The notes: generated by a model from the sequence alone, not told the origin. A stretch of DNA of 64,000 nucleotides from Chloroflexota bacterium (GCA_016875735.1 VGOW01000013.1:3564-67563), one strand, 5' to 3'; counted from the stretch's first letter, positions 4,762 through 58,447 are shown. Program-made: numbers and translations.

Positions 4762-4853
4762 TCGGAAGTCAGAAGATAGAAGTCAGAAATCGGAAGTCAG
4801 AAGAGTCTTTCTGGCTTCTGACCTCTGACTTCCGACTTCTGACCTCTGACCTC
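4762..4853. repeat. Heptamer-word hairpin (word 'gaagtca/gaagata') between pcrA and galE
   Basis: Left arm 'tcggaag|tcagaag|atagaag|tcagaaa|tcggaag|tcagaag'. Right arm is its imperfect reverse complement 'cttctgacctctgacttccgacttctgacctctgacc'. Confidence 0.85.
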
Positions 4854-4855
4854 TC

Positions 4856-5863
4856 ATGAATCTCCTCGTCACCGGCGGCGCGGGCTACATTGGCTCGGCC
4901 ACCGCCGCCGAACTCATCGCCGCCGGGCACACCGTCACCGTCTTCGACAACCTCTCGCGCGGCCACCGCGCCGCCATCCCGCCCGAAGCCTGCTTCGTTC
5001 ACGGCGACATTGGCGACCGAATGGCGCTGGCCAAAGTGTTTGCCTCCGGCAACTTCGACGCCGTCCTCCATTTCGCCGCGCTCATCGAAGCCGGAGAATC
5101 GATGAAAGACCCCGGCCTCTTTTTTCGCAACAACGTGGCCTATTCGAACAACGTCATCGAGGCTGCCGTGAAAGCGGGCTGTCTCAAATTCGTGCTCTCC
5201 TCCACGGCCGCCATCTTTGCCGCCAGCGACGAGCCTCTGCGCGAAGACTCGACCATCGCCCCCGTCAACACCTATGGCGAAACCAAATTGATGATCGAGA
5301 CCATGCTCAAATGGTACGGCCAGGTTCACGGGTTGCGATACGCCTGCCTTCGCTACTTCAACGCCGCCGGAGCGGCTCCGAATCGCGGCGAGGCCCACCA
5401 CCCCGAAAGCCACCTCGTCCCGCGCGTCCTCCATGTGGCGCTCGGCCAAGCCGAGTCCGCCGCCATTTTCGGCGCAGATTATCCGACCCCCGACGGCACG
5501 TGCATCCGCGATTACATTCACATTGTTGATCTCGCGCAAGCGCATGTGCTGGCTGTGGAAGCGTTGAATGAAAAACCGACTCTCATTTACAATCTTGGCA
5601 ACGGGCAGGGCTATTCGGTGCGCGAAGTGATCGAGGCCGCGCGCGCCGTCACCGGCCACCCGCTCCCTGTCGTCGAACAGCCGCGCCGCCCCGGCGACGC
5701 GCCGCGCCTCGTCGCCTCCTCCGAAAAAATCCGCCGCGAACTCGGCTGGACTCCACGCCACCCCTCGCTTCACGACATCATCGCCAGCGCGTGGGAGTGG
5801 CATCGGGGGCACCCCAACGGCTATGAGCCTTCAGCGATCAGCACTCAGTCGTTAGGCCGCTGA
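4856..5863 (+). CDS. galE: UDP-glucose 4-epimerase
   Basis: 335 aa. 'VTGGAGYIGS' Rossmann motif, 'YGETK' catalytic YxxxK, full-length GalE-like. Confidence 0.9.
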   Translation: MNLLVTGGAGYIGSATAAELIAAGHTVTVFDNLSRGHRAAIPPEACFVHGDIGDRMALAKVFASGNFDAVLHFAALIEAGESMKDPGLFFRNNVAYSNNVIEAAVKAGCLKFVLSSTAAIFAASDEPLREDSTIAPVNTYGETKLMIETMLKWYGQVHGLRYACLRYFNAAGAAPNRGEAHHPESHLVPRVLHVALGQAESAAIFGADYPTPDGTCIRDYIHIVDLAQAHVLAVEALNEKPTLIYNLGNGQGYSVREVIEAARAVTGHPLPVVEQPRRPGDAPRLVASSEKIRRELGWTPRHPSLHDIIASAWEWHRGHPNGYEPSAISTQSLGR

Positions 5864-5889
5864 ACACTGATCGCTGATTGCTGACCGCT
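5829..5889. repeat. Word hairpin ('gatcagc' family) overlapping the galE 3' end
   Basis: 'cttcagcgatcagcactcagtc ... ctgaacactgatcgctgattgctgaccgct'. It encodes the last galE residues (..SAISTQSLGR). Confidence 0.7.
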
Positions 5890-7044
5890 ATGAAACTCGC
5901 CCTCAACGGCTGGTTCTACGATCAACCGCACACCGGCAGCGGCCAATATCTGCGCGGCCTGCTCGATCACCTCCCCCTCGCCGCGCCCGATATTGAGATC
6001 ACACTCATCGCGCCTCGGCCCATTCAACTCGAATCCAATCACGCCTCCCGCCTCCCGCTCCACGCCTCCCGCTCCACGCCCGACGCCGCGCGCTCGAACC
6101 TCTCCAAACTTAAATTCGAGCAGCTCGACTTCCCCGCCGCTTGCAAACGCATCAACGCCGATCTCGCCCACATCCCGTATTGGGCGCCGCCCCTCGCCTC
6201 CCCCGTTCCGTTCGTCGCCACCATTCACGATCTCATCCCCCTCCTCATCCCCGAATACAATCGCGCCCTCAAAGCCCGCTTCTACAACGCCCTCGTGTCG
6301 GCGGCCACACCCGGCGCGGCTCACCTCATCGCCGATTCCGACTCCTCGCGCAATGACATCATCCAGCGCCTCCGCGTTCCGCCGGAAAAAGTGACTGCCA
6401 TTCACCTCGCCGTCGGCCCCGAATACAAGCCCGCGCCCGACTCTCCCCGCGACGCCGTCATTCGACAAAAATACAATCTGCCCGACTCATACGTCCTCTA
6501 CCTCGGCGGATTCCAGCCGCACAAAAACGCGCGCAGCCTCCTCGCCGCGTGGACGTGGTGCGACGGCTCCATCGGCGAGCAATATCCGCTCGTCATCGCC
6601 GGAAAACTTCCCGCGCGCGGCGATCGTTTCCACGACGATCTTCCGGCTTACGCGAAACAACTCGGCATCGCCGAGAGTGTCCGCTTCATCGGCCCCGTCG
6701 CCGAAGAGGACAAGCCCGCGCTCTATCGCGGCGCGGCCTGTTTCGTTTTCCCGTCTCGATACGAAGGCTTCGGCCTTCCGCCGCTCGAAGCCCTTGCCTG
6801 CGGAGCGCCCGTTGTCACCACCGCTTTCGCTTCCATCCCCGAAGTGGTGGGCGAGGCCGCTTACCTCGTCCGCGATCCCGACGACACGCGCTCGCTCGGC
6901 GCGGCCATCCTCGCCGTCGTCGTCAACCCCGATGTGGTGGATCGACTCGCCACAGCCGCGCGCGCGCAAGCTCAAAAGTTCAGTTGGCAAAGGACTGCGG
7001 AAGAAACTGCCGCTGTTTACCGAAAAGCATTGCGGCGCGGATAG
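5890..7044 (+). CDS. Glycosyltransferase family 4 (GT-B)
   Basis: ATG at 5890; the track start at 5878 is a TTG inside the repeat. 'SRYEGFGLPPLEALACGAPVV' EX7E motif. Confidence 0.8.
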   Translation: MKLALNGWFYDQPHTGSGQYLRGLLDHLPLAAPDIEITLIAPRPIQLESNHASRLPLHASRSTPDAARSNLSKLKFEQLDFPAACKRINADLAHIPYWAPPLASPVPFVATIHDLIPLLIPEYNRALKARFYNALVSAATPGAAHLIADSDSSRNDIIQRLRVPPEKVTAIHLAVGPEYKPAPDSPRDAVIRQKYNLPDSYVLYLGGFQPHKNARSLLAAWTWCDGSIGEQYPLVIAGKLPARGDRFHDDLPAYAKQLGIAESVRFIGPVAEEDKPALYRGAACFVFPSRYEGFGLPPLEALACGAPVVTTAFASIPEVVGEAAYLVRDPDDTRSLGAAILAVVVNPDVVDRLATAARAQAQKFSWQRTAEETAAVYRKALRRG

Positions 7045-7082
7045 ATCGACACGGCCAAGCGAATCCGTGTACCATTGACTCA

Positions 7083-9692
7083 ATGTCTCCCGCCGCAAAC
7101 CCCACGCCGAAGATGGCAGATCGCTTTCTTTCCTTCATCACTCATCGCTCACGGCAAAGCCGTCCTTTAGGATCGCTCATCGTTACATTTCTCGCCTTCT
7201 TCGCCCTCTACGCCTTCACCCTCTCGCCCGGCCTCCTCCCCGCCGACTCTGGCGAGTTCCAAACCGTCGTTCCATTGCTCGGCGTCGCCCACCCGCCGGG
7301 CTTCTCGCTCTACATTCTGCTCGGCAAACTCTTCACCGGCCTCGTCCGCATTGGCAGCTACGCTTATCGCCTCAACCTCTTCTCTGCGTTCACCTCAGCC
7401 ATCACCCTCGCCCTCGTCACCCTCGTCGTCCAACGCCTCACTCGCCCCACTCCTCACGCCCCACTCCTCACGAATCTGCCCGGCTTCCTCGCCGCCTTCA
7501 TACTCGGCGTCTCCACCACCTTTTGGTCGCAAGCCACCACCGCCAACATTCGCAGTCTCATGGCCCTGCTCACCGCGCTGGCCGTGTGCGCCCTCATCGA
7601 ATACCAACTCAACCCCACCATCAACCGACTCGCCTTTCTCGCCTTCACCCTCTCCCTCGCCGTCGTTCATCACCTCTCCATTGCCTTCATCGCCATCACT
7701 CTCGCCGCCGCCGCCATCGTGTTCACCCCCTCACCCCGTCATCTTGTCACCCCAAAGATTCTCCTCAAACTCAGTGTGTCTATTGTTGCCCCTCTCGCCG
7801 TTCTCCTCTACCTCCCCATTCGCGGCGCGGCGGGCGCCTACCTTGCCCCGCCCGGCCTCAACACCCTCAACGGATTCCTGCAACACGCGCTCGGCCTCGG
7901 CTTCGGCGGCGACTTCTTTTACTTCGCCAACCTCTCCGCCCTCCCCGATCGCCTCGCCATCCTCCTCAACATCTTCCTCTTTCAATTCAACGCGCCGACT
8001 CTGATCCTCCTCGCCATCGGCCTCCTCCTCTTTTTCTTCCGCGATCCGAAACTTGCCGCCGCTCTCACCCTCGCTTTCGCCGTTCACTGCGTTGTCGCCA
8101 TCACCTACCGCGCCCCGCAAACCGTCGAATACCTTTTGCCCGCCTACGTCATCCTCGTCATCACCGCCCTCAGCGGTTGGCAATTCATCTTTGACCGTTG
8201 GCCTTCCCGCTTTGAAGTTTGGACTTTGAAGTTTGCCCTTTATTGTTCATTCTTCATTTCCTCATTGCTCATTCTGTTTCGCAACTACCCCGCCTACAAA
8301 ACCCTCTCCCACGACGACTCCACTCGCGCCCACGCCGAAGGCCTCCTCCTCGCCGCGCACCCCAACGCCCTCATCCTTGCCAACTGGCACTACGCCACGC
8401 CGCTCTGGTATCTGCAGCGCATCGAAGGCGTCCGCCCCGATGTCACCGTCGAATACGTTTTTCCGCAGGGCGCATCGCTCACCCAAAACTGGGTGGATCA
8501 GATCAACGCCAACGCCGCCGACCGCCCAACCATCGTCACCAATTTTTATCCGACAGAATACGCTTCACTGCCCCATCGCTTCCTCCCCATCCTCACCGCA
8601 TTGCCCGCATGGCAAGCCGCCACCGACCCCCTCACCGATCCGATCCCCGCCGCGCCCACTCACGAGGGTGGTTGGGCCTTTCTCAGCGGCGGCCCCATTT
8701 CACAGAGCCCGCTCACACAAAACGAATCCTTCACCGTCCAAATCTTTTGGCAAGCGCCCGAGTCACCCACCGATATTAACTTCTTCGTGCAGCTCATCGG
8801 CCCCGATGGATTGCTCTACGGCCAAGCCGACGTGTTCCACCCGGCGGGCAAACTCACGCCGCATGAAATCATTTCAGATCGACTCGCCCTCGCCGTCAAC
8901 GCCGATGCGCCCCTCGCCGACGGCTACTCGCTGGTCACCGGCGCGTATCTCCCCGATGGCCGCCGCCTCGCCCCCGACTTCACCGAGATCGCCGCACTCG
9001 CCGTCATCCCCTCGACCTCGGCTCCCTCCACCCTCCACCCTTCACTTCTCCCCAACCTCATCGCCGGATACGATTACGATCTCTCCATTCCCGACTCTCC
9101 CCGCCTCTACCTCCACTGGCGACTCGATGGGCAATCGCACAACCTCACCCTCGCCGATTCAACCGGCGCATTCACCCAGCCCATCGCCCTCCCGCCTCTC
9201 ACCGGTTATATCACCACCTCTCACGACCTCCCTCCCGGCTGGCAGACTACCACCCTCACCGCTGACGGCTTCTCATTCCGCATTCCGCATTCCGCATTCC
9301 GCATTACAGATCGCCGCCTCTCCTTCGGCCCGCTCACCCTCGTCGGCGCGGCCATCACCAAAGAAAGCGACGGCTCGTATCGGGTTGACCTCGACTGGAT
9401 GGCGAACGAGCCGATCATCAATGATCACATCGTCAAAGTTGATCTCGTCGGCGAAAATTATTCGTGGCGCGATCAGTCGGACTCCGTCCCCGCGGGTGGC
9501 GCAATCCCCACCCTCAAATGGATCCCCGGCATCCTCATTCACGACCGCCACCGATTGAGAATGCTTCAGCCCACGCTTGCCGCTTTTCAACTCGCCGTGT
9601 ACGATCACTTCACCCAACGCAACCTCCCCCTCCTCGATTCCCGCCTCGCCCTCCTCGGCCCCACTGTTCCCCTCGGCGTCGTTCAGCCATAA
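7083..9692 (+). CDS. DUF2723-type polytopic membrane protein (GT-C-like, putative glycosyltransferase) with C-terminal beta-rich modules
   Basis: In-frame ATG at 7083. The track ORF from 6549 is an Arg-rich read-through overlapping the GT4 gene. 'LLPADSGEFQ..GVAHPPGFSLY' and many TM segments. Confidence 0.7.
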   Translation: MSPAANPTPKMADRFLSFITHRSRQSRPLGSLIVTFLAFFALYAFTLSPGLLPADSGEFQTVVPLLGVAHPPGFSLYILLGKLFTGLVRIGSYAYRLNLFSAFTSAITLALVTLVVQRLTRPTPHAPLLTNLPGFLAAFILGVSTTFWSQATTANIRSLMALLTALAVCALIEYQLNPTINRLAFLAFTLSLAVVHHLSIAFIAITLAAAAIVFTPSPRHLVTPKILLKLSVSIVAPLAVLLYLPIRGAAGAYLAPPGLNTLNGFLQHALGLGFGGDFFYFANLSALPDRLAILLNIFLFQFNAPTLILLAIGLLLFFFRDPKLAAALTLAFAVHCVVAITYRAPQTVEYLLPAYVILVITALSGWQFIFDRWPSRFEVWTLKFALYCSFFISSLLILFRNYPAYKTLSHDDSTRAHAEGLLLAAHPNALILANWHYATPLWYLQRIEGVRPDVTVEYVFPQGASLTQNWVDQINANAADRPTIVTNFYPTEYASLPHRFLPILTALPAWQAATDPLTDPIPAAPTHEGGWAFLSGGPISQSPLTQNESFTVQIFWQAPESPTDINFFVQLIGPDGLLYGQADVFHPAGKLTPHEIISDRLALAVNADAPLADGYSLVTGAYLPDGRRLAPDFTEIAALAVIPSTSAPSTLHPSLLPNLIAGYDYDLSIPDSPRLYLHWRLDGQSHNLTLADSTGAFTQPIALPPLTGYITTSHDLPPGWQTTTLTADGFSFRIPHSAFRITDRRLSFGPLTLVGAAITKESDGSYRVDLDWMANEPIINDHIVKVDLVGENYSWRDQSDSVPAGGAIPTLKWIPGILIHDRHRLRMLQPTLAAFQLAVYDHFTQRNLPLLDSRLALLGPTVPLGVVQP
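7133..7185. repeat. Intragenic repeat with 34-nt core shared with 10393-10456
   Basis: 'tcacggcaaagccgtcctttaggatcgctcatcg' flanked by 'ctcatcg' words. Translated 'HRSRQSRPLGSLIV'. Confidence 0.75.
8211..8276. repeat. Intragenic heptamer words ('tttgaag/tttggac', then 'ttcattg' type)
   Basis: 'tttgaagtttggactttgaagtttg' shares 18 nt with the reverse complement of hairpin 28146-28200. Followed by 'ttattgttcattcttcatttcctcattgctcattctg'. Confidence 0.7.
9273..9307. repeat. Intragenic tandem heptamers 'gcattcc' x5
   Basis: 'tcattcc gcattcc gcattcc gcattcc gcattac', translated 'SFRIPHSAFRIT'. The same word occurs at 43568-43595. Confidence 0.85.
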
Positions 9693-9698: not shown

Positions 9699-12600
9699 AT
9701 GCGCGCCGCCTTTCGTCATTCGTCATTCGTCATTCGCCATTTGCCTCTCCTCGCTCTCGCCCTTCTCGCCATCTACCCTATCCTCGCCTCCGGCCTCCCC
9801 ACCACTGGCGACGGCCTAATTCACTACTATCGTTTCGCCGAACTCGATTGGCACATCCGCCATGGCGATCTCTACCCGCGCTGGTTCGACAACATGGGCT
9901 ACGGTTTCGGAATGCCCGTGCTCAACTTTTACGCGCCGCTCTCTTATTACATCCCCCTCCTCTTCCGACTCTTCAACCTATCCCTCGCCACATCACTGCA
10001 ACTCGGTTATGCCCTCGCCCTCGCCCTCGCCCTCCTCGGCGCGCACCAATGGGCCTCCGCCCTAACCACCCAACCACCGAACCACCGAACCACCCAACCA
10101 CCCAGCCACCTAACTGCCCTCCTCGCCGCCGCCGCGTACGGTCTCGCCCCCTACTTCTACTTCAACATCTTTCATCGCGGCGCATACCCCGAGACATGGG
10201 CGCTCGCCCTCGCCCCATGGCTCCTCTGGTCAGCGCACAAACTCGCCGAACAGCCGACCGCTCTTCGCTCCTCCCTCTTCACCGTTCTCCTCTCCGCCCT
10301 CATCCTCACCCATACCCTCTCTGCCCTCATCTTCATCCCGATCATCTCCGTTTACCTCATCGCCCTTTCCATCACTCATAACCTTGTTGCCCGTCGTTTG
10401 TCGTTCACGGCGAAGCCGTCCTTTAGGATCGTTCATCGCTCATCGCTCATCGTTTATCCCTTCGCCCTCTCCGCCTTCTTCATCCTCCCCCTCGCCTTCG
10501 AGTCGCAGTTCATCCAACTCTCTCGCGCCTTCTCCACCGGCGATCTCGATTACCATCGCAACTTCCTCAAACTCGCCGCCCTCCTCTCCTCGCCCCCCAA
10601 CTTCGATCCCCGCCTCGTCTTCAATGCCATACCCCCCAGCCTCGGTTGGCCGCAACTCCTGTTGGCGCTGTCAGCGGTTGGCGGTTGGCTGTTCGCCGCT
10701 CGCCGCAAATCACCGCTCGCCTCCCGCTCTCTCTTCATTGTTCATTGTTCATTGTTCATTCTTCTTTCCCTCCTCGCCCTCTCTATCACCGAGCCCCTCT
10801 GGAATCTTTTTCCCTTCGCCCGCTTCATCCAATTCCCATGGCGGCTCATCGGCCCCGCCTCCCTCTTCCTGGCCGCCCTCGCCAGCAATTCTCCAATCTC
10901 CAATCTCAACTCTCAAACATCAAAAACCCTCTTTCTCTCCGCCTCTATTGCCGCCTTCTTTTTCTTTTCCCTCCCTTGGACATATCACGCCGACTTCGCC
11001 CTCCACGCCCCACCCTCCACGCCCCACGCTCCAACCGACACCATCCGCTACGAAACCACCTCCGGCCAACTCGGCGCCGCCTCCACCGCCGAATACCTCC
11101 CCCGCTGGGTCGCCGCGATTCCCGATCCCAATACCCTCCTCCCACAATTCGCCGCCACCGAGACTCCCTCTCGACTCGCCCCGCTCCCCGAATCCGTTTC
11201 GCTCCACGCTTCACGCTTCACGCTTCACGCTCAAGAAATCATTTATGACTCCGCGTCCTCCTTCACCGCCGCCTTCAACCTCTTCTACTTTCCCGGCTGG
11301 GCGGCGACTCTCGACGGCGACCCGATCGGCATTCAACCCTCCTCGCCGCATGGGCTGATCACCGTTGCCCTGCCTGCCGGAACGCACACCCTGCGCCTCT
11401 CGCTCCAACCCACCGCGCCACAACGTATCGGCGTCCTTGTCTCCCTCGCCGCGCTGCTCATACTCATCCTTCGCCTCGTCCGCCGCCCCTCATCCACTGC
11501 TCACCGTTCACCGCCCGCCAATCGCCAATCACCAATCACCAATTACCAGCCACCGATCATTGTGTCATTGTTCATTGCCTCATTGCTCCTCGCCCGCGCC
11601 CTCTACTTCGACCGCGCCGAAACCATCTTCCACCACACCGACGTTATCCCCAATCCGCTCTCCGTCAACATCGAAGATCAACTCGAACTCCTCGGCTACG
11701 AATTTCCAAAAGGGACTCAATTCGCATCCGACTCCCAACTACCAATCACCCTCTACTGGCGGGCGCTCGCGCCGCTCACCACCGATTACTCCACCACCGT
11801 CCAACTCGCCGATCGCTTCGGCAACCGCTTCGGCCAATCCGACAGCCAGCATCCCAACGGCGTCCCCACCTCCCGCTGGGCGCTCAATCAATACGCTCGC
11901 GACTCGCACACACTCGTTCCCCTCATCGGCGCGCCCCCCGGCGTTTACAAATTACTGATCACCGTTTACGCCTCGCGCCCCCTCAGCATCCTTCAAGATT
12001 CTGCGCCCGCCGGAATCGAATATGAACTCGGCGCGGTGACCATCACTCGCGGCCAGCCCCAGCCGCCCGGCCCCCTCACGCTGACCGACTCTGATCTGGC
12101 AACCGACTCCGTTTCCGTCGGCGATCAGCTGGCCTTCACCCTCTTGTGGAACTCCGGCGACAAGCCCCTGCCCGTTCTCACCGCGCGAGTGTTGCTGGCC
12201 GACTCCGCCGATCAAACGATCTTCTCTGCCGACCTTCCTCCTTCCGGAGAAGATTACCCGACGAGCCAATGGGCGCTCAACGAACTCGTCCGCTTCCCAT
12301 TCAGTGTCGGCCTCCCGCCCGATCTGCCCGGCGGAGCGGCGCGAGTCCGCATCCTTCTGCTCGACGCCAACGGCATGATCTGGGCCGGGCCATTCGACAT
12401 CGGCATGATCACCATCGCCGTGCCGGAGCGCTCGTATATCATTCCGCCGATGCAGGTTCGAGTCGATCACGATTTTGCGAAAGCGATCCGTTTGCTGGGG
12501 TACGACCTTGCGCCCGACTCGATCACACTCTACTGGCAATCGCTCGCGCCAGTGGCGCAGAGGCTCACGGCCTTCGTGCATCGGCTCGACGACTCGGGCG

Positions 12601-12770
12601 CGTTCGTGGCCGGGCACGATGCCCCGCCGAGTCGGCCTGCCACCGGCTGGCTTCCCGGCGAAGTGGTGGCCGACTCGCATCCCATTTCTGCGGGCGAGCG
12701 TTTCGAAATTGGACTCTATGACCCAATGACAGGGGAAAGATTCGGTGAAGTTTTTGTAACACCCCGTTAA
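9699..12770 (+). CDS. PTPS-related-domain polytopic membrane protein (GT-C-like) with C-terminal beta-rich modules
   Basis: 1023 aa. 'YPRWFDNMGYGFGMPVLNFYAPLSYY'. Clear paralog of 38108-41074. Contains at least 7 word-repeat insertions. Confidence 0.65.
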   Translation: MRAAFRHSSFVIRHLPLLALALLAIYPILASGLPTTGDGLIHYYRFAELDWHIRHGDLYPRWFDNMGYGFGMPVLNFYAPLSYYIPLLFRLFNLSLATSLQLGYALALALALLGAHQWASALTTQPPNHRTTQPPSHLTALLAAAAYGLAPYFYFNIFHRGAYPETWALALAPWLLWSAHKLAEQPTALRSSLFTVLLSALILTHTLSALIFIPIISVYLIALSITHNLVARRLSFTAKPSFRIVHRSSLIVYPFALSAFFILPLAFESQFIQLSRAFSTGDLDYHRNFLKLAALLSSPPNFDPRLVFNAIPPSLGWPQLLLALSAVGGWLFAARRKSPLASRSLFIVHCSLFILLSLLALSITEPLWNLFPFARFIQFPWRLIGPASLFLAALASNSPISNLNSQTSKTLFLSASIAAFFFFSLPWTYHADFALHAPPSTPHAPTDTIRYETTSGQLGAASTAEYLPRWVAAIPDPNTLLPQFAATETPSRLAPLPESVSLHASRFTLHAQEIIYDSASSFTAAFNLFYFPGWAATLDGDPIGIQPSSPHGLITVALPAGTHTLRLSLQPTAPQRIGVLVSLAALLILILRLVRRPSSTAHRSPPANRQSPITNYQPPIIVSLFIASLLLARALYFDRAETIFHHTDVIPNPLSVNIEDQLELLGYEFPKGTQFASDSQLPITLYWRALAPLTTDYSTTVQLADRFGNRFGQSDSQHPNGVPTSRWALNQYARDSHTLVPLIGAPPGVYKLLITVYASRPLSILQDSAPAGIEYELGAVTITRGQPQPPGPLTLTDSDLATDSVSVGDQLAFTLLWNSGDKPLPVLTARVLLADSADQTIFSADLPPSGEDYPTSQWALNELVRFPFSVGLPPDLPGGAARVRILLLDANGMIWAGPFDIGMITIAVPERSYIIPPMQVRVDHDFAKAIRLLGYDLAPDSITLYWQSLAPVAQRLTAFVHRLDDSGAFVAGHDAPPSRPATGWLPGEVVADSHPISAGERFEIGLYDPMTGERFGEVFVTPR
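9714..9741. repeat. Intragenic tandem heptamers 'cgtcatt' x4
   Basis: 'cgtcatt cgtcatt cgtcatt cgccatt' at codons 6-14 (FRHSSFVIRH). Confidence 0.85.
10064..10114. repeat. Intragenic heptamer words ('ccaacca/ccgaacc' family)
   Basis: 'aaccacccaaccaccgaaccaccgaaccacccaaccacccagccacctaac' encodes 'TTQPPNHRTTQPPSHL', which is absent from the paralog. Confidence 0.8.
10393..10456. repeat. Intragenic repeat with 34-nt core shared with 7133-7185
   Basis: 'tcacggcgaagccgtcctttaggatcgttcatcg' plus 'ctcatcg' words. Translated in a different frame from the 7133 copy ('SFTAKPSFRIVHRSSLIV'). Confidence 0.75.
10733..10764. repeat. Intragenic tandem heptamers 'gttcatt' x4
   Basis: 'cttcatt gttcatt gttcatt gttcatt cttc' (SLFIVHCSLFIL). 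Confidence 0.85.
10886..10928. repeat. Intragenic heptamer words ('ccaatct' family)
   Basis: 'caattctccaatctccaatctcaactctcaaacatcaaaaacc'. The same word occurs in the 44999 hairpin and in acnA at 50133. Confidence 0.75.
11204..11233. repeat. Intragenic tandem heptamers 'acgcttc' x4
   Basis: 'ccacgcttcacgcttcacgcttcacgctca' (HASRFTLHAQ). The same word occurs in hairpin 26668-26750. Confidence 0.85.
11498..11588. repeat. Intragenic run of heptamer words ('caatcac' then 'cattgtt')
   Basis: 'ccaatcgccaatcaccaatcaccaattaccagccaccgatcattgtgtcattgttcattgcctcattgctc' with period 7 throughout. Confidence 0.8.
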
Positions 12771-12803: not shown

Positions 12804-13151
12804 ATGATCAAAAAACGCAAGATGACCAACAACAAATACAGGGTGACGTTTTCGATGCCTGCGCTGGAAGGCGTGACGCAGCTGCACCTTGTCGGCGAGT
12901 TCAACGATTGGAGCGAAACCGCCACGCCGATGCAGAAGGCCGACGACGGCTCGTGGAGCGCGAAACTGACTCTGGAAGGCAACCGCGAGTATCAGTATCG
13001 CTACCTCGCCGACAACGGCCAATGGCACAACGATTGGGCCGCCGATGCCTATGTGCGTAACGAATTCGGGGCCGATAATTCGGTTGTGAGTCTGATCGCG
13101 GGAGAATCGCCGAGAAAGAAAATCGCGGCGAGGAAGAAGCTGTTGCTGTAG
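12804..13151 (+). CDS. Glycogen-binding / CBM48 (AMPK-beta-like early-set) domain protein
   Basis: 'LVGEFNDWS...MQKADDGSWSAKL...YQYRYL'. The ATG at 12804 follows a GGAG-rich stretch; an alternative ATG is at 12786. Confidence 0.7.
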   Translation: MIKKRKMTNNKYRVTFSMPALEGVTQLHLVGEFNDWSETATPMQKADDGSWSAKLTLEGNREYQYRYLADNGQWHNDWAADAYVRNEFGADNSVVSLIAGESPRKKIAARKKLLL

Positions 13152-13208
13152 CCGTCAGCGATCAGCAAAAGCACTTCACCGATGGCTGACTGCTGATCGC
13201 TGATCGCT
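13151..13208. repeat. Word hairpin ('gatcagc' family) between convergent genes
   Basis: 'gccgtcagcgatcagc ... gctgactgctgatcgctgatcgct'. Confidence 0.75.
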
Positions 13209-14496: not shown

Positions 14497-14571
14497 CGTT
14501 TGAAACGATGAACGATGAGCGATGAATGATGAACGACGAATTCATCGTTCATCGTTCCGCCTTCATCGTTC
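14497..14571. repeat. Heptamer-word hairpin ('gatgaac' family) filling the whole purA / sugar-transferase intergenic gap
   Basis: 'cgtttga|aacgatg|aacgatg|agcgatg|aatgatg|aacgacg|aattcat|cgttcat|cgttccg|ccttcat|cgttcc'. Confidence 0.85.
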
Positions 14572-14572
14572 C

Positions 14573-17127: not shown

Positions 17128-17140
17128 GGAGGGGATTATA
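17128..17140 (-). promoter_or_regulatory. TATAAT-N7-GTG: candidate leaderless promoter of the GT4 gene
   Basis: Minus strand reads 'tataat cccctcc GTG'. Confidence 0.4.
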
Positions 17141-17142: not shown

Positions 17143-17250
17143 GTGACAAGATGAAAGGATGACAAGATGACAGCATGGCACGATGACAGGATGCTCGAAG
17201 TGGTAGCCGATACAACCTGTCATCCTGTCACCCACTCATCGTGCCATCAT
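17143..17250. repeat. Octamer-word hairpin ('gacaagat' family)
   Basis: 'gacaagat|gaaaggat|gacaagat|gacagcat|ggcacgat|gacaggat' pairs with 'catcctgtcacccactcatcgtgccatcatg'. Related to 30815-30901. Confidence 0.8.
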
Positions 17251-18357: not shown

Positions 18358-18370
18358 GAGCAGGATTATA
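18358..18370 (-). promoter_or_regulatory. TATAAT-N7-ATG: candidate leaderless promoter of the GT4 gene
   Basis: Minus strand reads 'tataat cctgctc ATG'. Confidence 0.4.
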
Positions 18371-18372
18371 AA

Positions 18373-18440: not shown

Positions 18441-18452
18441 TGTTTTCGAGTC

Positions 18453-18458
18453 TATAAT
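18453..18458 (+). promoter_or_regulatory. Candidate -10 box TATAAT for the glycoside hydrolase gene (leadered, with SD)
   Basis: 'tctataatcctctgcaattcacaccGGAGGaaacccATG'. Confidence 0.4.
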
Positions 18459-44996: not shown

Positions 44997-44998
44997 TT

Positions 44999-45050
44999 CT
45001 CCAATTCTCTGATCCTCTAATCTCAGAATTAGAGGATCAGAGAATTGGAG
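44999..45050. repeat. Perfect 23-bp-stem hairpin ('ccaattc/ccaatct' family) between the response-regulator and kinase genes
   Basis: 'ctccaattctctgatcctctaat ctcaga attagaggatcagagaattggag'. Confidence 0.9.
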
Positions 45051-45061
45051 ATTTGAGATCG

Positions 45062-47520: not shown

Positions 47521-47555
47521 CGCGCCGACTCAACCGAGTCGGCGAGATCGTTTTG
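47521..47555 (+). terminator. Possible intrinsic terminator after the PAS-prenyltransferase gene
   Basis: 'cgccgactc aacc gagtcggcg', followed after 7 nt by 'gtttt'. Confidence 0.35.
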
Positions 47556-49388: not shown

Positions 49389-52142
<2,754 letters not shown>

Positions 52143-53626: not shown

Positions 53627-54604
53627 ATGAACCAGATTTACCATCACTCGTGCGAAAATATGCGCGAGGTAAAAAATGACTCTGTTGCGTTGACTGTCAC
53701 CTCGCCGCCGTACTGGAATGCGATAGATTACGATATTCATGCTTCGGACAAGAGTCAATACTACCGGACTCGGAATTATGCCAGCGGCTACTCAGAATAC
53801 TCCGAGTATCTTTCGTGGTTGGAGAAGGTTTTTGGAGAAGTCCATCGCGTCACCGTGCCGGGCGGTTTCTGCGCAATCGTCATAGGAACAGTGTTATTGG
53901 ACGGCGCACATCACCCCGTTCCATTCGACGTCACCTCTCGACTGTCCCAAAAGGGCTGGGTATTTCATCAAGACATTATTTGGCACAAATGCACGGCTGG
54001 CGTAAAGCGGGCGGGGGTCACTATCCAGAAGCCGTATCCTGGCTACTACTACCCCAACATCATGACCGAGTACATTCTGGTCTTTCGAAAGCCGGGAGCG
54101 CCCATTTACAAAGATCGTTCAGCAGAGGAGAAAGACGCGGCAGCCTATCCCATCAATCACCTATTTACGATGGACACCGCCAACAACATCTGGCATATAG
54201 CCCCGGTGCCTCCCGACGTGATTGACCACCCTTGTCCCTTCCCCGAGGAAATACCCTATCGCCTCGTTCAAATGTACTCTTACCCCGGCGATGTCGTTCT
54301 TGATCCGTTCGCGGGTTCGGGCCAAACGACTAAAGTAGCCAAACACCTTCACAGGAAATTTGTGGGGTACGAGACAATAGCAAAGTACGTGACGCTGGCA
54401 GAGAAGCGTCTCAAGGAGCCGCTCTCGATACGTCCCAAACAGTTGATCGCGACTTTCGAGAAAATCGCCTTTGACGAGCCTTCAGGAGCGGAAAGCAAAA
54501 CCGAAGGCGCAGCCCGCAAAAACGGCAAGAAGCGCAGTGCTGAAGAACCCGCGCAAGGCCGCTTATTCGAGAGAAGAGCTATTTATACGAAGACAAAATC
54601 TTGA
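53627..54604 (+). CDS. Beta-class amino DNA methyltransferase (N6_N4_Mtase family; SPPY motif suggests m4C)
   Basis: 325 aa. Motif IV 'TSPPYW' near the N-terminus and motif I 'DPFAGSGQT' near the C-terminus. Basic C-terminal tail. Confidence 0.85.
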   Translation: MNQIYHHSCENMREVKNDSVALTVTSPPYWNAIDYDIHASDKSQYYRTRNYASGYSEYSEYLSWLEKVFGEVHRVTVPGGFCAIVIGTVLLDGAHHPVPFDVTSRLSQKGWVFHQDIIWHKCTAGVKRAGVTIQKPYPGYYYPNIMTEYILVFRKPGAPIYKDRSAEEKDAAAYPINHLFTMDTANNIWHIAPVPPDVIDHPCPFPEEIPYRLVQMYSYPGDVVLDPFAGSGQTTKVAKHLHRKFVGYETIAKYVTLAEKRLKEPLSIRPKQLIATFEKIAFDEPSGAESKTEGAARKNGKKRSAEEPAQGRLFERRAIYTKTKS

Positions 54605-55217
54605 ATTCCGGGCGGCTCAGAATTTCCGATGCGATGAGCGCGCTCGCCACCTTTGTCTTTACCAAATCGCCGGACTTGTGAGGAATAGCGAGCGATATAA
54701 AGTAATGAGGCTGTTTCTTTCGCAGTGAGTTAAGCGGCCCCCATTGCAGAACGAGGGCGTCGCCGCTCGACTTGGTTGCATTGGGCAACAAATCAGGATC
54801 AGCGTAGACAATACCGATTCCCGACAATACGAACAGCGTCGCCTCGTTCCAACCCCGCTTGTCAGCACTACCCAGCGAATTAATCAATCTGATCTGTCCC
54901 TTTTTCTCCGCGAATACACCCTTCACGGAAAATCCGTCGCAGCCGGGCAGTTGAATATCAATCCGGCGGTTTACTGCTCCAGTGTTTTTTGCGGGGAACC
55001 TCAATGCCCGAAAAGCGGCGCCCAAGATGTATTCGCTCACCCCGCCGACAACAAACCTGTTTTCGTAAACAGTCGTGTTGTACTCGTCCAACAGCAGGCC
55101 AAAGGCTCGCTCGATCTCCAGCCTGACATCTGGCGTGCTATCCATCTTCTCTTTGAGTGAAAAGAAAATCTGTCTTTGCTGTTCGAAGTGGCTTTTGGGC
55201 ACAATACCGTCCTCCAT
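54579..55217 (-). CDS. Putative type II restriction endonuclease, cognate to the adjacent methyltransferase
   Basis: 212 aa from 'MEDGIVPKSHF'. The longer track form runs antisense into gatC. Possible 'IDIQL..FSVKG' nuclease core. Convergent with the methyltransferase, with a 26-bp 3' overlap. Confidence 0.45.
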   Translation of the reverse strand: MEDGIVPKSHFEQQRQIFFSLKEKMDSTPDVRLEIERAFGLLLDEYNTTVYENRFVVGGVSEYILGAAFRALRFPAKNTGAVNRRIDIQLPGCDGFSVKGVFAEKKGQIRLINSLGSADKRGWNEATLFVLSGIGIVYADPDLLPNATKSSGDALVLQWGPLNSLRKKQPHYFISLAIPHKSGDLVKTKVASALIASEILSRPEFKILSSYK

Positions 55218-55252
55218 GCTTGCGTCGCGAGTTCCCGCTATCGGTTGTAGAT

Positions 55253-55258
55253 TATAAT
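55253..55258 (+). promoter_or_regulatory. TATAAT-N7-GTG: candidate leaderless promoter of gatC
   Basis: 'gattataat tccattc GTG' with GTG at 55266. Confidence 0.4.
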
Positions 55259-55265
55259 TCCATTC

Positions 55266-55553
55266 GTGCCCCTCACCCTCGCCGAAGTCCAACATATTGC
55301 CGAGCTGGCGCGGCTCGAACTTGCCGAAGAAGAACTGACTCATTTCCGCGAGCAATTGTCGTCGGTGCTCGATTACGCGGCGCAGCTGCGCGCGGTGGAC
55401 ACCTCGGCTATTCCGCCCACGGCCACCGTCCTGCCGCTTCGCACCGTTCTGCGCGAAGATGCGGCCCAGCCCTCACTGCCGCGCGAGGCGCTGTTGGCGA
55501 ACGCCGCCGAATCGGAAGCGGGGTGCTTCAAAGTGCCTCCAGTGCTGGATTGA
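55266..55553 (+). CDS. gatC: Glu/Asp-tRNA amidotransferase subunit C
   Basis: 95 aa. 'VQHIAELARLELAEEEL..F..QL..VLDY'. Confidence 0.9.
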   Translation: MPLTLAEVQHIAELARLELAEEELTHFREQLSSVLDYAAQLRAVDTSAIPPTATVLPLRTVLREDAAQPSLPREALLANAAESEAGCFKVPPVLD

Positions 55554-55560: not shown

Positions 55561-55606
55561 CTGACCACCGATCACCGATCACTGACTACTGACCACTGGC
55601 TACTCT
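55561..55606. repeat. Tandem heptamer words ('ctgacca/ccgatca') between gatC and gatA
   Basis: 'ctgacca ccgatca ccgatca ctgacta ctgacca ctggcta'. Confidence 0.8.
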
Positions 55607-57070
55607 TTGGAACTCCACACCCTCACCCTCACCGAAGCCGCCGCGAAATTGCACAGCGGCGAAGTCACCAGCGTGGCGCTCACCGAAGCCATGCTCCAAC
55701 GCATCGAAGCGCATAACCCGGCGCTCAACGCTTTCCTCAGCGTGACCGCCGACGCCGCGCTCGAATCGGCGAGGCAGGCCGATGCGCGGATCCGATCAGG
55801 GGCGGCGTCACCGTTGACGGGTGTGCCCATCGCCCTCAAAGATGTCATCTGCGTGAAAGGCCTGCCCACCACCGCCGGGTCGCTCATCCTCAAAGGCTAC
55901 CGCCCGCCATACAACGCCGCCGTCGTCGAAAAACTTTCGTCGGCGGGCGCAGTGATTCTCGGCAAGACAAACCTCGATGAATTTGCGATGGGCTCATCCA
56001 CCGAGAACTCGGCCTACGGCCCGACCCGCAATCCGTGGGACATGAGCCGGGTGCCCGGCGGATCGTCGGGCGGGAGCGCGGCGGCGGTGGCGGCGCGTTT
56101 GGCGTTCGGCGCATTGGGCACCGACACCGGCGGCAGTGTTCGGCAGCCAGCGGCGCTGTGCGGAGTCGTCGGCCTCAAACCCTCGTATGGCCGCGTGTCG
56201 CGTTATGGATTGATCGCCTTCGGATCATCGCTCGATCAGATCGGAGTCTTCGGGCGCACGGCTGAAGATGCGGCGGTGCTGATCGAAACGATTGCCGGAC
56301 ACGATCCGCGCGACGGCACGAGCATGCCGACTCCGGTTCCGAACTATCGCGCCGTATTGAGCCGCCCTCTGCATGGACTCCGAGTCGGCTTGCCCAAAGA
56401 ATACTTTGTGAGCGGTGTGCAGGCCGACGTGAGCGCGGGGGTGAACGCGGCGGTGAAGGTGTTGGAGAGTCTCGGCGCGACGGCGCGCGAAGTGACTCTG
56501 CCGCACACCGATCTCGCGCTCTCGACATACTACATCATTGCGCCCGCCGAGGCCTCGGCCAACTTGGCGCGGTTCGACGGGGTGCGGTTCGGCCCACGCG
56601 CCGAAGCCGACTCGATGTGGGATGAATATCGGCGCACTCGCGGCGCGGGCTTCGGCCCGGAAGTGAAACGGCGGATCATGCTCGGCGCGTATGCGCTCTC
56701 CACTGGCTACTACGATGCGTACTACTTGCAAGCGCAAAAGGTGCGCACGCTGATCAAAGCCGACTTCGATGCGGCGTTCAACGATGTGGATGTGATCGCC
56801 TGCCCCACTTCGCCGACGACCGCTTTCAAGATTGGCGAGAAGGTGGATGACCCGCTGGCGATGTATTTGGCCGACGTGTTCACCCTGCCCGGAAGTTTGG
56901 CGGGCATCGCCGGTCTCTCGGTCAATTGCGGCTTCGACGGCGATGGCCTGCCCATTGGCCTGCAACTGCTCGGCCCGGCCTTCACCGAAGAGCGATTACT
57001 GCGCGTAGCGCATCAATATCAGCAGGCCACCGAGTGGCATAAGAGACAGCCGCCAGCCTTTAGCCATTAG
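55607..57070 (+). CDS. gatA: Glu/Asp-tRNA amidotransferase subunit A
   Basis: 487 aa (TTG start). Amidase signature 'GGSSGGSAAAVA'. Confidence 0.93.
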   Translation: MELHTLTLTEAAAKLHSGEVTSVALTEAMLQRIEAHNPALNAFLSVTADAALESARQADARIRSGAASPLTGVPIALKDVICVKGLPTTAGSLILKGYRPPYNAAVVEKLSSAGAVILGKTNLDEFAMGSSTENSAYGPTRNPWDMSRVPGGSSGGSAAAVAARLAFGALGTDTGGSVRQPAALCGVVGLKPSYGRVSRYGLIAFGSSLDQIGVFGRTAEDAAVLIETIAGHDPRDGTSMPTPVPNYRAVLSRPLHGLRVGLPKEYFVSGVQADVSAGVNAAVKVLESLGATAREVTLPHTDLALSTYYIIAPAEASANLARFDGVRFGPRAEADSMWDEYRRTRGAGFGPEVKRRIMLGAYALSTGYYDAYYLQAQKVRTLIKADFDAAFNDVDVIACPTSPTTAFKIGEKVDDPLAMYLADVFTLPGSLAGIAGLSVNCGFDGDGLPIGLQLLGPAFTEERLLRVAHQYQQATEWHKRQPPAFSH

Positions 57071-57114
57071 CCCGACACACAGACTCCGCTAATCGCTAAT
57101 CGCTTATCGTTAGG
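57058..57114. repeat. Heptamer-word hairpin ('gctaatc') overlapping the gatA stop
   Basis: 'ctttagccattagcc ... gctaatcgctaatcgcttatcgttagg'. Confidence 0.7.
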
Positions 57115-57121
57115 AGCATTC

Positions 57122-58111
57122 ATGAAAGTCGTCATCCCTCTCGCCGGGTTCGGCACACGATTGCGCCCGCACACCTTCACCAAACCCAAACCGCTGATCA
57201 ATGTCGCCGGCAAGCCGGTGCTCGGCCACGTGCTCGATATGTTCAAGAGCCTCGACGTGGACGAATTCATTTTTATCGTCGGCTATTTGGGCGATCAGAT
57301 CGAGCAGTACGTGGGCAAGCATTATCCTCACCTCAAGGCCTCGTATTTCGAGCAAAAGGAGTTGAACGGCCAATCCACCGCTGTCTATCTGGCGAAGGAT
57401 CGGTTGAGCGGCCCAATGCTGATTGTCTTTGTGGACACGATTGTGGAAGCCGATCTCTCGGGGCTGGCGAATGAGAAGGCGGACGCGGTGGCGTGGGTGA
57501 AGCAGGTGGAAGACCCGCGCCGGTTTGGGGTGGCGATTGTGGGTTCGGACGGCTACGTGACGAAACTGATCGAGAAGCCGACGGATGTAAAAGATAATCT
57601 CGTGGTTGTCGGCTTTTATTATCTCAAAGACTCGCAGGCATTCATTCGCGCCATCGAGGAGCAACTGGCCAAAAACATCAAAACAAAGAACGAGTATTTT
57701 CTCGCCGACGCATTGCAGTTGATGCTCGACAGGGGCATGAAGATGCGCGTACAGCCGGTGGAGGTGTGGGAGGACTGCGGCAAGCCGGAAACGGTTCTGC
57801 ACACCAATCGGTATTTGCTCGATCACGGCCACGACAACAGCGCCGACGTGAAGGCCGACGGCAACATCATCATCCCGCCGGTGCATATCGACCCCACTGC
57901 CAAACTCAGTCACTCGGTCATCGGCCCGCACGTGACCATTGCCGCCGGGTGCAAAGTGGAGAACTCCATTCTGCGAGACTCGATCATTGACGAAGGCGCG
58001 ACGATTCAGAATGCGATGCTGGCGCAGTCGCTCATCGGCAAAGATGCCCGCGTGGGCGGAAAGTTCCGCACCTTCAATGTGGGCGATTCGAGCGAGGTGG
58101 GTTTCGAGTAA
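57122..58111 (+). CDS. Sugar-phosphate nucleotidyltransferase with C-terminal left-handed beta-helix
   Basis: 329 aa. 'VIPLAGFGTRLRPHTFTKPKPL'. Confidence 0.8.
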   Translation: MKVVIPLAGFGTRLRPHTFTKPKPLINVAGKPVLGHVLDMFKSLDVDEFIFIVGYLGDQIEQYVGKHYPHLKASYFEQKELNGQSTAVYLAKDRLSGPMLIVFVDTIVEADLSGLANEKADAVAWVKQVEDPRRFGVAIVGSDGYVTKLIEKPTDVKDNLVVVGFYYLKDSQAFIRAIEEQLAKNIKTKNEYFLADALQLMLDRGMKMRVQPVEVWEDCGKPETVLHTNRYLLDHGHDNSADVKADGNIIIPPVHIDPTAKLSHSVIGPHVTIAAGCKVENSILRDSIIDEGATIQNAMLAQSLIGKDARVGGKFRTFNVGDSSEVGFE

Positions 58112-58183
58112 GCTGTTAGCGCTCAGCGATCAGCGGGTTGCTGGCGTTGCGCTGAGGGCTAATTGCTGATCGTTGATGGCTGA
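58112..58183. repeat. Imperfect word hairpin ('gatcagc' family)
   Basis: 'gctgttagcgctcagcgatcagc ... gcgctgagggctaattgctgatcgttgatggctga'. Confidence 0.6.
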
Positions 58184-58403
58184 AATCGTTAAATGCCACT
58201 CCGGGCACGAATATGCCGAGCGCCCCACCGCGCTGTTTTGGGAAGAGGCATGGCTGGAGATCGAGGCGGTCGAAAAGCAGTGGCGTATTCCCGGCGGCAA
58301 ATGTTTTCGCGTGCGAACAACAAGCGGGCTTGTGTTCGAGTTGATGTACGGCGAGTTATACGATGAATGGAGAATCAATCCATCAGCGGATGAAACGGAT
58401 TGA
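58176..58403 (+). CDS. Small hypothetical protein
   Basis: 75 aa, 'MAEIVKCHSGHEYAERPTALFWEE..'. No family recognised. Confidence 0.4.
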   Translation: MAEIVKCHSGHEYAERPTALFWEEAWLEIEAVEKQWRIPGGKCFRVRTTSGLVFELMYGELYDEWRINPSADETD

Positions 58404-58447
58404 ACGGATTTCGATTTGCATCCGATCCATCCGTTCAATCCGTTGAC
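58386..58447. repeat. Word hairpin ('aacggat')
   Basis: 'gcggatgaaacggattgaacggatt tcgatttgc atccgatccatccgttcaatccgttgac'. Confidence 0.75.

Follow-up and report, generated by a model that had tools for sequence, protein, structure and literature searches.

STRR-like tandem heptamer arrays and their hairpins at gene boundaries in a Chloroflexota chromosome segment

Introduction

In cyanobacteria, tandem heptamers called STRR (for short tandemly repeated repetitive) sequences were reportedly described by Mazel et al. in 1990, with the consensus words CCCCAGT (STRR1), TTGGTCA (STRR2) and CAACAGT (STRR3); Vioque is said to have found in 1997 that such repeats also extend a helix inside RNase P RNA. 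Elhai et al. reportedly described, in 2008, small dispersed repeats (SDR) of Nostoc, hairpin elements of 21-27 nucleotides (nt) embedded in heptamer arrays and proposed to be mobile, which may resemble the elements considered here. Arrays of the STRR type have been known since 1990 and have been treated as a peculiarity of cyanobacteria. Here we describe the same architecture, at a comparable or higher density, in an unrelated phylum. The DNA in question is a 64,000-nt stretch filed under a Chloroflexota bacterium (GCA_016875735.1 VGOW01000013.1:3564-67563; hereafter the window, with positions counted from its first letter), in which gene boundaries carry hairpins whose arms are tandem copies of 7- or 8-nt 'words'.

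Heptamer arrays that form hairpins are 'not unusual in filamentous cyanobacteria', where they are found between hupS and hupL and upstream of hoxW, and where roles in transcript stability, translational coupling and termination have been proposed (PMC2670836). Inverted heptamer pairs have been found in Xanthomonas and Nostoc, as has rapid turnover of length or sequence among related species at conserved intergenic positions, and the over-representation of heptamer simple sequence repeats (SSRs) in bacteria has been ascribed to polymerase slippage, related to the active-site footprint of the enzyme (PMC4692102). Chloroflexus aurantiacus carries multiple copies of heptamer satellites, (GATAGRA)n (PMC6749651). 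An initial reading of the window, the first-pass annotation, took the inverted-array form to be undescribed. This was an overstatement, as inverted heptamer hairpins have been published for filamentous cyanobacteria, Xanthomonas and Nostoc (PMC2670836, PMC4692102). Among the papers searched, none was found that joins heptamer repeats with Chloroflexota or Anaerolineae beyond the Chloroflexus satellites.

The window arrays are STRR-like arrays in an Anaerolineae-like Chloroflexota clade, a non-cyanobacterial counterpart of the STRR hairpins. With moderate confidence, we regard them as simple-sequence arrays of 7-nt, sometimes 8-nt, units that were made in place by slippage and palindrome extension, and not as a dedicated regulatory device or a transposon.

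Statistical reality of the arrays

Tandem Repeats Finder (TRF) identifies 34 period-7, 14 period-8 and 11 period-14 arrays in the window, against means of 2.3, 2.05 and 0.25, respectively, in 20 dinucleotide shuffles, the excess of arrays over shuffles being ~15-fold. In intergenic DNA, lag-7 identity is 0.311 versus 0.254 (z=7.9), with weaker signals at lags 14, 21 and 8 (z=5.0, 4.4 and 3.4, respectively). The 19 hairpins listed in the first-pass annotation were folded and compared with 100 dinucleotide shuffles per site. Fifteen have z-scores from -3.2 to -9.3. The site at 17143 has a z of only -2.0 on the plus strand, yet reaches -47.9 kcal/mol on its sense (minus) strand, which brings the hairpins confirmed by folding to 16 of the 19. 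The site at 57058 is weak (z=-2.2), while those at 37367 and 55561 are one-sided arrays that do not fold into a hairpin. Random 75-nt control windows gave a mean z of -0.37, with 2% below -3. The observation of tandem 7-8 nt words and inverted arrays is thus borne out by TRF, by lag-7 identity and by folding against shuffles, the last two being checks proposed at the outset.

Array density is 3.1/kb at boundaries, compared with 0.51/kb deep in genes. An inverted partner accompanies 14 of 22 boundary arrays, as against 1 of 29 deep-coding arrays (Fisher p=3e-6), and the sole deep-coding example is really the hairpin at the C-terminus of PanC. The earlier claim that such elements punctuate nearly every gene boundary went too far: arrays or hairpins are present at 18 of the 53 boundaries in the window, about one in three, or roughly half once boundaries with gaps shorter than 20 nt are set aside.

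It is extremely improbable that the arrays are the product of chance or of faulty assembly. The only point in favour of an artefact is that the sequence comes from a metagenome assembly. Against either explanation stand the excess over shuffles, the presence of the same trait in related contigs from ENA, JGI and Logan, and the agreement of five independent assemblies, from different samples and assemblers, on which grounds an assembly artefact was rejected. Over sites 13151, 14497 and 17143, four of these assemblies (one from JGI and three Logan runs) show 99.9-100% identity, and the fifth is 99.887% identical, with 0 gaps over 21,290 nt; the hairpins are present, as the proposed comparison of assemblies was meant to establish. 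Two contigs end at 18403, within a hairpin, and two at 17086, ~57 nt before the next hairpin. Such breaks are expected of short-read assemblies at repeated palindromes, and they make the elements a practical nuisance for assembly.

Host and distribution among relatives

The window is a compact chromosome segment of 61% GC with housekeeping genes (UvrD, GalE, glycosyltransferases, PurA, CoaBC/CoaX/PanBCE, aconitase and GatA). Its PurA is 100% identical to MBM4422913.1, named as a Chloroflexi bacterium metagenome-assembled genome (MAG), and genes on JGI lake-metagenome contigs match likewise. Among the matches listed, PurA is 58-62% identical to that of the best species-level genomes, which are Anaerolineales/Chloroflexota MAGs. 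Because PurA matches a Chloroflexi MAG and Anaerolineales, the first guess of a non-cyanobacterial genome holds. To judge from these protein matches, the host is an uncultured freshwater member of the Chloroflexota, probably Anaerolineae-like, represented by a MAG.

The evidence presented here is drawn from the 64-kb window and about a dozen informative related loci, referred to by labels such as L087. Relatives whose PurA is 79-84% identical are syntenic and carry period-7 arrays just as abundantly; those at ~80% carry 13-19 per 20-21 kb, and a relative at 72% carries 4. The Anaerolineales at 58-62% are poor in period-7 arrays. Relatives identified through PanC at 63-73% identity are enriched, with 0.5-2 arrays/kb among the matches listed. 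For period-7/14 arrays, the window has 0.70/kb versus a median of 0.05/kb in 84 loci (80 from diverse phyla and four same-population contigs), and an Anabaena locus, from a classical STRR host, has 0.49/kb. The array trait is clade-specific. As there are many metagenomic relatives at graded distances, the origin of the arrays can be tested by comparison.

Orthologous boundaries

Four boundaries were compared: PurA/CBM48, Bac_transf/PurA, the divergent promoter region and PanC/CoaX. The comparison had been suggested as a way of seeing whether hairpins are gained or lost as units; orthologous boundaries show graded states and not simple presence or absence. In relatives with 73-84% identical proteins, hairpins lie at the same boundaries, and their words are the same, related or different.

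The convergent PurA/CBM48 boundary provides the clearest series. In L087 there is only a textbook bidirectional terminator, with an A-run, a GC-stem and a T-run. In L172 and L173 this terminator core is flanked on both sides by inverted heptamer arrays that lengthen its stem, and in the window the arrays stand alone apart from a remnant of the core. At this boundary the words ACCAATC, ACCGATC and AGCGATC differ by single-nucleotide steps, and they do so in both arms.

At Bac_transf/PurA, L172 has a homologous hairpin of 83% identity with the same GAACGAT words, differing in unit count and loop, whilst the hairpins of L173 and L089 are made of other words. L087 carries one-sided arrays here, and L085 a gap of 6 nt. 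The array-poor relative at 72%, L090, has a plain hairpin at this boundary (9920-9995) whose stability on the sense strand is greater by 14 kcal/mol, unlike that of the strand-symmetric array hairpins, a possible example of RNA-level selection at the same site.

In L087 and L089 the same two -10 boxes of the divergent promoter region enclose a hairpin built of AAATCCC/AAAATCCC words. L173 is without an array and has a single CTCAAACTTGG 'seed', which agrees with the word used in the window. The arms of the L089 hairpin (5629-5671) contain TTTTGGGG/TTTGGGG arrays similar to ciliate telomere repeats, which could form G-quadruplexes.

At PanC/CoaX, L092 shares the CAAACTY family with the window. 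The hairpins are of AAATCCC words in L091 and L093 and of GTGTCAA words in L094; long one-sided arrays are found in L122 and L128 and a plain hairpin in L095, and in L097 the genes overlap. L122 also contains nested hairpins, in which outer heptamer arms surround inner octamer arms made of a different word.

Position, promoters and terminators

The hairpins occupy the interval between stop and start codons. They begin within ~20 nt of the upstream stop codon, which lies at or inside the 5' foot, and the next start codon follows 0-20 nt beyond the 3' foot, in most cases that of a co-directional gene. As first noted, the C-termini of GalE, PanC, PanB, GatA and a methyltransferase are repeat-encoded, their stop codons lying inside hairpin arms; the same applies to the glycosyltransferase GT4b. 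Gene callers are misled by this arrangement, which yields ORFs (open reading frames) that run on through the arms, N-termini that are spurious and C-termini encoded by repeats.

The sequence TATAATCC, a -10-like box, occurs four times in the window, against 0.16 expected, and every copy abuts or lies near an array. Two copies sit 7 nt before a GTG or ATG, a spacing that is kept in relatives. At these sites (17125-17140 and 18355-18370, minus strand), exactly 7 nt separate TATAAT(CC) from the GTG (17127) or ATG (18357) that follows, with the spacing kept in L087, L089 and L173. The conserved distance from box to start implies that the two GT4 genes would be expressed from leaderless mRNAs. The ORF-based starts (17235/17223 and 18399) entail reading through hairpin arms and are probably wrong. 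Mimicry of -35 elements by the words TTGTCA and TTGAAG beside the four TATAATCC boxes is suggestive but no more than a minor possibility, since the spacing is inconsistent and most hairpins are not close to promoters.

No U-tract or T-run follows any of the array hairpins. A simple terminator scan of the 44-64 kb region listed a canonical site at 47523-47544 and 0 array hairpins; a terminator-like palindrome at 62490-62526 was found among inverted repeats. It was thus rejected that the array hairpins are canonical intrinsic terminators. Rfam gave no match to a known RNA family at the gathering threshold over the 64 kb, on either strand. Selection of the stems at the RNA level would be expected to make G·U pairs favour the sense strand. 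In 22 hairpins of known orientation (14 from the window and 8 from relatives), the sense strand is the more stable in 6 and the mean difference is ~0, giving no signal of such selection; without a sense-strand folding advantage, the palindromes are symmetric at the level of DNA. The hairpin at 18370-18446, because it is placed between two divergent -10 boxes and hence upstream of both promoters, should be transcribed from neither. With no U-tract, no sense-strand advantage and one hairpin upstream of both divergent promoters, the terminator or RNA-stability role once offered for these elements finds no positive support.

Arrays within genes

The arrays were at first framed as an intergenic phenomenon, which overlooked ~29 one-sided period-7/8 arrays deep in coding sequence; the periodicity pervades the tolerant parts of genes. 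Eighteen of these lie in two genes for GT-C-type membrane glycosyltransferases. These GT-C-like genes (7083-9692 and 9699-12770, plus strand) carry ~18 one-sided period-7/8 arrays between 7199 and 11585, such as CATTCCG x4.6, AACCACCC x6.4 and CCAATCA x6, in variable loops and tails. A four-way protein alignment places the array-encoded segments in a variable N-terminal tail and in loops, where indels between orthologues include an exact 7-amino-acid (aa), or 21-nt, insertion, FRIVHRSSLIVYP. In-frame expansions of 21 nt thereby create 7-aa repeats in membrane-protein loops. Some intragenic arrays are kept across orthologues, among them one encoding LHASRFTLHA and CGCTTCA at 11200, the counterpart of GTGAAGC in L085. 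Between 6001 and 12000, over the two GT-C genes, GC skew is strongly negative (-0.35 to -0.47) and the sense strand is C/T-rich. This is consistent with intragenic array words having been seeded from local sequence, whose composition they share.

Elsewhere, a one-sided octamer array, CACCCAAC x4.8, lies within an 804-aa gene (19485-19522, plus strand), and CATTCCG x3.7, the same word as at 9274, within a 382-aa ORF (43568-43593, plus strand). AGCAATC x5, as read on the sense strand, encodes part of a variable surface loop of aconitase (50844-50878, minus strand). The annotated N-terminal extension of aconitase also holds a palindrome of C7/G7 runs, CCCCCCCTCTGTCCCCCCCGC / GCGGGGGGGACGTAAGGGGGG, at 51903-51946. 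As the Pfam match begins at residue 91, the true start may lie downstream, with the palindrome in the leader.

Word families

Word statistics were compiled from 112 period-7 arrays in the window and 10 related loci. Seventy-six canonical words are represented, and octamer variants are common. The claim that some of the elements are truly multi-copy stands, since several word families recur at non-orthologous sites in the window, and the identity shared by 18373 and the reverse complement of 28146 extends over 35-36 nt, loop included. None of the published words of STRR, Xanthomonas, Nostoc or Chloroflexus (GATAGRA) is arrayed in the window, where tandem dimers of STRR1-3 number 0; identity with published heptamer words is thereby ruled out.

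Within genes, TCA is found on the sense strand of the heptamer words. GATC occurs within 9 of the 112 array words, including the GATCAGC family of the window. Restriction-modification (R-M) genes are also present, namely, at the left end (65-2413), one for an HsdR-like helicase of type I and, at 53627-55355, one for an N6/N4 DNA methylase, which overlaps an ORF of 258 aa in convergent orientation.

Origin of the arrays

Quasipalindromes are reportedly subject to template switching, a model attributed to Ripley and, in Escherichia coli, to Lovett and colleagues, whereby imperfect inverted repeats become more perfect and sequence can be copied between arms or flanks. To our knowledge this is a mechanism of point and short-tract mutation that has not been documented as a genome-wide builder of arrays. 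Of the roles offered in the first-pass annotation, 'slippage plus template-switch' is the best fit. In the explanation that we favour, the lineage amplifies short local sequences into 7-8-nt tandem arrays wherever these are tolerated, that is, in intergenic DNA and in low-constraint loops and tails of proteins, with frame-preserving changes such as 21 nt (7 aa) surviving in genes. At boundaries, as the orthologue series shows, arrays flank a hairpin or palindrome on both sides and lengthen its stem, in some cases with successive layers built from different words. This palindrome, for instance a canonical terminator working in both directions or a site lying between divergent promoters, would have been there first, and its core may later decay to leave a hairpin of arrays only. 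Complementarity between arms would be kept by copying at the DNA level, likely through intrastrand template switching (quasipalindrome correction or extension), acting alongside slippage and, from time to time, ectopic conversion among arrays that resemble one another, such that RNA-level selection would not be required. Hairpins transcribed within operons might then serve as 3'-exonuclease barriers, weak terminators or insulators, or by folding might hold stop and start codons adjacent, so that expansion would be tolerated between coupled genes. It is possible that any function of the hairpins is secondary to their origin in place.

Several observations sit uneasily with this explanation. In the strain at 99.887% identity there is no change in unit number, and 0 of 24 single-nucleotide polymorphisms (SNPs) fall in hairpins; because the arrays are unchanged at the strain level, slippage must be slow or episodic. 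With 0 indels at this distance, the idea that the arrays are hypervariable contingency loci was rejected at the strain level. A further locus, L083, has 6 SNPs, all of them outside arrays. Word families also recur within the 64 kb: GATCAGC at 5829, 13151 and 58112, with a relative at 23949, the GACAAGAT family twice, CAAACTC two or three times and GCAGAGA twice. Such recurrence is not predicted by local seeding, and ectopic conversion, a strong preference for certain words or mobility is needed to account for it. Words with TGA/TCA make up 56 of the 112 arrays versus ~19 expected at this GC content, with TAG/CTA in only 4. Finally, the template switch and the direction from terminator to array are drawn from a few orthologous sites, in an unrooted comparison.

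An alternative is that the hairpins are selected RNA or DNA elements, be they terminators or insulators that lack a U-tract, stabilisers of the 3' ends of upstream cistrons (comparable to the REP/BIME elements of E. coli operons or to the role suggested for STRR between hupS and hupL), or devices that juxtapose stop and start codons for translational coupling, the words being merely the easiest way to a stem. Their tight fit, at most ~20 nt from the upstream stop and 0-20 nt before the next start, speaks for this, as does the exact placement of the 17143 hairpin, with a stop codon on one side and the -10 box of the following gene on the other. At PurA/CBM48 the heptamer hairpin stands where relatives have canonical terminators, the same boundaries have arrays or hairpins with differing words in 5 of 6 related lineages, and in 28146, L091 and L092 the 3' arm bears the downstream GGAG Shine-Dalgarno motif. 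Yet the absence of U-tracts, with no array hairpin picked up by the terminator scan of 44-64 kb, tells against termination. Selection as RNA is not borne out by G·U pairing, from which the sense strand gains nothing (6/22), in contrast to the plain hairpin of L090, with 14 kcal/mol in favour of its sense strand. One conserved hairpin position is upstream of both divergent -10 boxes, relatives cope with a 6-nt gap or with overlapping genes at the same junctions, L087, L122 and L128 have one-sided arrays at the same boundaries, and a function of hairpins cannot account for intragenic periodicity. On this balance we think selected elements unlikely, though they retain some weight. A more elaborate proposal, which we hold to be decidedly unlikely, is that of 'operon splints', folding spacers of 60-110 nt that allow reinitiation across a stem in a shunt-like form of translational coupling, alongside an engine of palindrome growth that would gradually take over from canonical terminators. 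The engine would be lineage-specific and nucleated by hairpins, combining 7-nt slippage with template switching. The upstream stop and the downstream start would be brought to the two feet of one stem, where terminating ribosomes would reinitiate. If true, the idea would account for the persistence between coupled genes of self-complementary arrays alone, and for the placing of starts 0-12 nt from the 3' foot, in many cases with no Shine-Dalgarno motif.

It might equally be asked whether the hairpins are miniature non-autonomous mobile elements, inserting at boundaries and moved in trans by an enzyme from another part of the genome, in the manner of SDR, of miniature inverted-repeat transposable elements (MITEs) or of REPINs, the hairpins formed by paired repetitive extragenic palindromes (REP). 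Multi-copy families within 64 kb share the ends TAGC..TCAGCGATCAGC...GCTGATCGCTGA..GCTA, 18373 and 28146 are identical over 36 nt with the loop included, independent assemblies break at or near elements (17086 and 18403), and exact multi-word strings are genome-specific, all of which could be read as signs of mobility. Nevertheless, we judge it quite unlikely, as the 112 arrays comprise 76 canonical words, and loops, unit order and unit counts vary within families. There are no terminal inverted repeats distinct from the words, and no target-site duplication is seen at Bac_transf/PurA when the window is compared with the array-free 6-nt gap of L085. Related words are kept at orthologous sites over 73-84% protein identity, with stepwise changes, and one-sided and intragenic arrays share the same period. 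One palindrome per family in many near-identical copies, the mark of REP and REPIN, was not found within the window and related loci, nor were terminal inverted repeats with target-site duplication and clean empty sites, the mark of MITEs, at the few sites examined. The window has no REP-associated tyrosine transposase (RAYT). The 64 kb encode a single Y1 transposase (33147-33605), with 157 bits to IS200 TnpA (NF033573) and 34.7 bits to the RAYT model, for which the cut-off is 80; being an ordinary IS200 TnpA without arrays at its ends, it provides no link to RAYT or REPIN, and a connection through this enzyme was rejected.

Individual boundary elements

Between UvrD and GalE, a GAAGTCA/TTCTGAC hairpin with ~6 copies per arm (4752-4866; z=-6.8) fills the space from the UvrD stop (4756-4758) to the GalE ATG (4856). 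A hairpin of the GATCAGC/CGCTGAT family (5826-5890), recognised by family alignment and folding (z=-5.6), holds the GalE stop (5861-5863) and reaches the ATG of a GT4 gene (5890). The GATCAGC-family hairpin between convergent CBM48 and PurA (13147-13211; z=-7.9), the subject of the orthologue series above, has its two stop codons, TAG and CTA, base-paired together at the stem's foot. On the minus strand, a GATGAAC/TTCATCG hairpin (14500-14575; z=-6.2), homologous to that of L172, extends from the Bac_transf stop (14573-14575) to the PurA start (14496).

The GACAAGAT-family octamer hairpin at 17143-17255 (minus strand) runs from the GT4b stop (17236-17238) to the TATAATCC -10 box (17133-17140) of GT4a, which is predicted to be leaderless (GTG 17127). 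It has a paralogue at 30815, and the orthologous site in L089 is a one-sided array. The spacer between GT4b and GT4a in L089 (6785-7245) also contains a palindromic element of ~270 nt, GGCGGATTAGAGCG...CGCTCTAATCCGCC, which is MITE-like in look; beside it, directly 5' of the conserved -10 box, is a long one-sided octamer array of the CCTTGTCA type. The CAAACTC/CAAACTT hairpin at 18370-18446 (z=-6.1), which has orthologues, lies between the divergent -10 boxes at 18363-18370 (minus) and 18453-18460 (plus).

Two GCAGAGA-family hairpins on the plus strand are 75% identical paralogues. One (21522-21595; z=-4.8) is 3' of a DUF2442 gene and 5' of a class-III aminotransferase gene, and the other (22963-23035; z=-4.3) spans from the aminotransferase stop (22959-22961) towards the ATG of an HD-domain gene (23045). 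Upstream of the former, a DUF4160/DUF2442 pair (20891-21151 and 21166-21432; names from JGI calls on the identical contig L171) lies between direct repeats of 61 nt (20778-20838 and 21443-21503) that are 92% identical and duplicate the 3' end of the 804-aa gene. At this spot relatives have other cassettes, consisting of HNH with Amphi-Trp, TumE with HEPN/NTP_transf, or a DpnII-like R-M pair, and it looks like an insertion site for variable cassettes.

A short CGCTGAA hairpin or array of 4.6 copies (23949-23990, plus strand; z=-3.2) reaches from the stop of the HD gene to 4 nt short of the ATG of an RNase Z-like gene (23994). Three hairpins then follow on the minus strand. That of GCGTGRR/ACGCTTC words (26653-26750; z=-5.3) holds the methyltransferase stop (26729-26731) and ends before the CoaBC start (26650). 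One of the CAAACTC family (28143-28208; z=-5.1) codes for the last ~17 codons of PanC (stop 28156-28158), with the CoaX ATG (28140) 4 nt past its foot, and one of the GACAAGAT family (30815-30901; z=-9.0) holds the PanB stop (30890-30892), with the PanE ATG (30811) likewise 4 nt past the foot. The IS200-family element (33075-33630) has flanking hairpins of its own (33075-33120 and 33606-33630) that bear no relation to the heptamer arrays.

The remaining elements are on the plus strand. A period-6/7 hairpin, AGTTTG/CAAACTC (36503-36556; z=-8.8), lies 4 nt after the stop of an SBP-VWA gene and is followed by a CAACTC array. A one-sided octamer array of AACCACCT, in 4.6 copies (37367-37405; E=0), forms no hairpin and has a TATAATCC box (37349) on one side and an ATG (37405) on the other. 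From the stop of a response regulator (44994-44996) to the start of a histidine kinase there is a near-perfect hairpin of octamer words, with 27-nt arms that are 96% complementary (44993-45056; z=-9.3). One-sided heptamer arrays of CACCGAT and ACTGACT (55561-55606; z=0.0), again with no hairpin, lie directly 5' of GatA, and a weak hairpin or array of CGCTAAT, in 3.3 copies (57058-57112; z=-2.2), overlaps the GatA stop (57068-57070). A third GATCAGC-family hairpin (58112-58185; z=-4.3) begins 1 nt after the stop of an NTP-transferase gene. The last, of AACGGAT with 16-nt arms that are 100% complementary (58386-58447; z=-4.6), is 20 nt 5' of an aminotransferase ATG (58465).

Comparison with known systems

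The likeness to STRR that was first proposed is upheld by dispersed period-7/8 inverted arrays, mostly at boundaries, with 16 hairpins confirmed. In common with cyanobacterial STRR, the window has a 7-nt unit, tandem repetition, dispersed and mostly intergenic loci, and inverted arrays between co-transcribed genes or near 3' ends (PMC2670836). It differs in its Chloroflexota host, of a phylum that is probably also filamentous, in its 76 words among 112 arrays, in its octamers and many coding arrays, and in having terminator cores with flanking arrays. The SSRs of Xanthomonas (GGGAATC) and Nostoc (GGGGAYT) are likewise intergenic, near starts and stops, and include some inverted pairs with the potential to form stem-loops or cruciforms (PMC4692102). 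In contrast to the many non-G-rich words of the window, where pairing at boundaries is the rule, they consist of essentially one G-rich, G-quadruplex-prone word per genome. The Chloroflexus satellites belong to the same phylum, but they form a single word family and no hairpin organisation has been described for them (PMC6749651).

REP elements, bacterial interspersed mosaic elements (BIME) and REPIN resemble the hairpins in being extragenic imperfect palindromes, multi-copy, located at gene ends and in operons, and are thought to protect mRNA 3' ends (PMC3116915). A REP family, however, has one conserved sequence of 20-40 nt, depends on RAYT and lacks 7-nt periodicity, whereas the words here are diverse and periodic. 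With quasipalindrome template switching the window shares strand-symmetric arms and outward growth, the traces that such a process would be expected to leave were it at work here. What the present arrays add to the described systems is the flanking of terminator cores by arrays, the concerted turnover of words in both arms, and an abundance of in-frame arrays in proteins.

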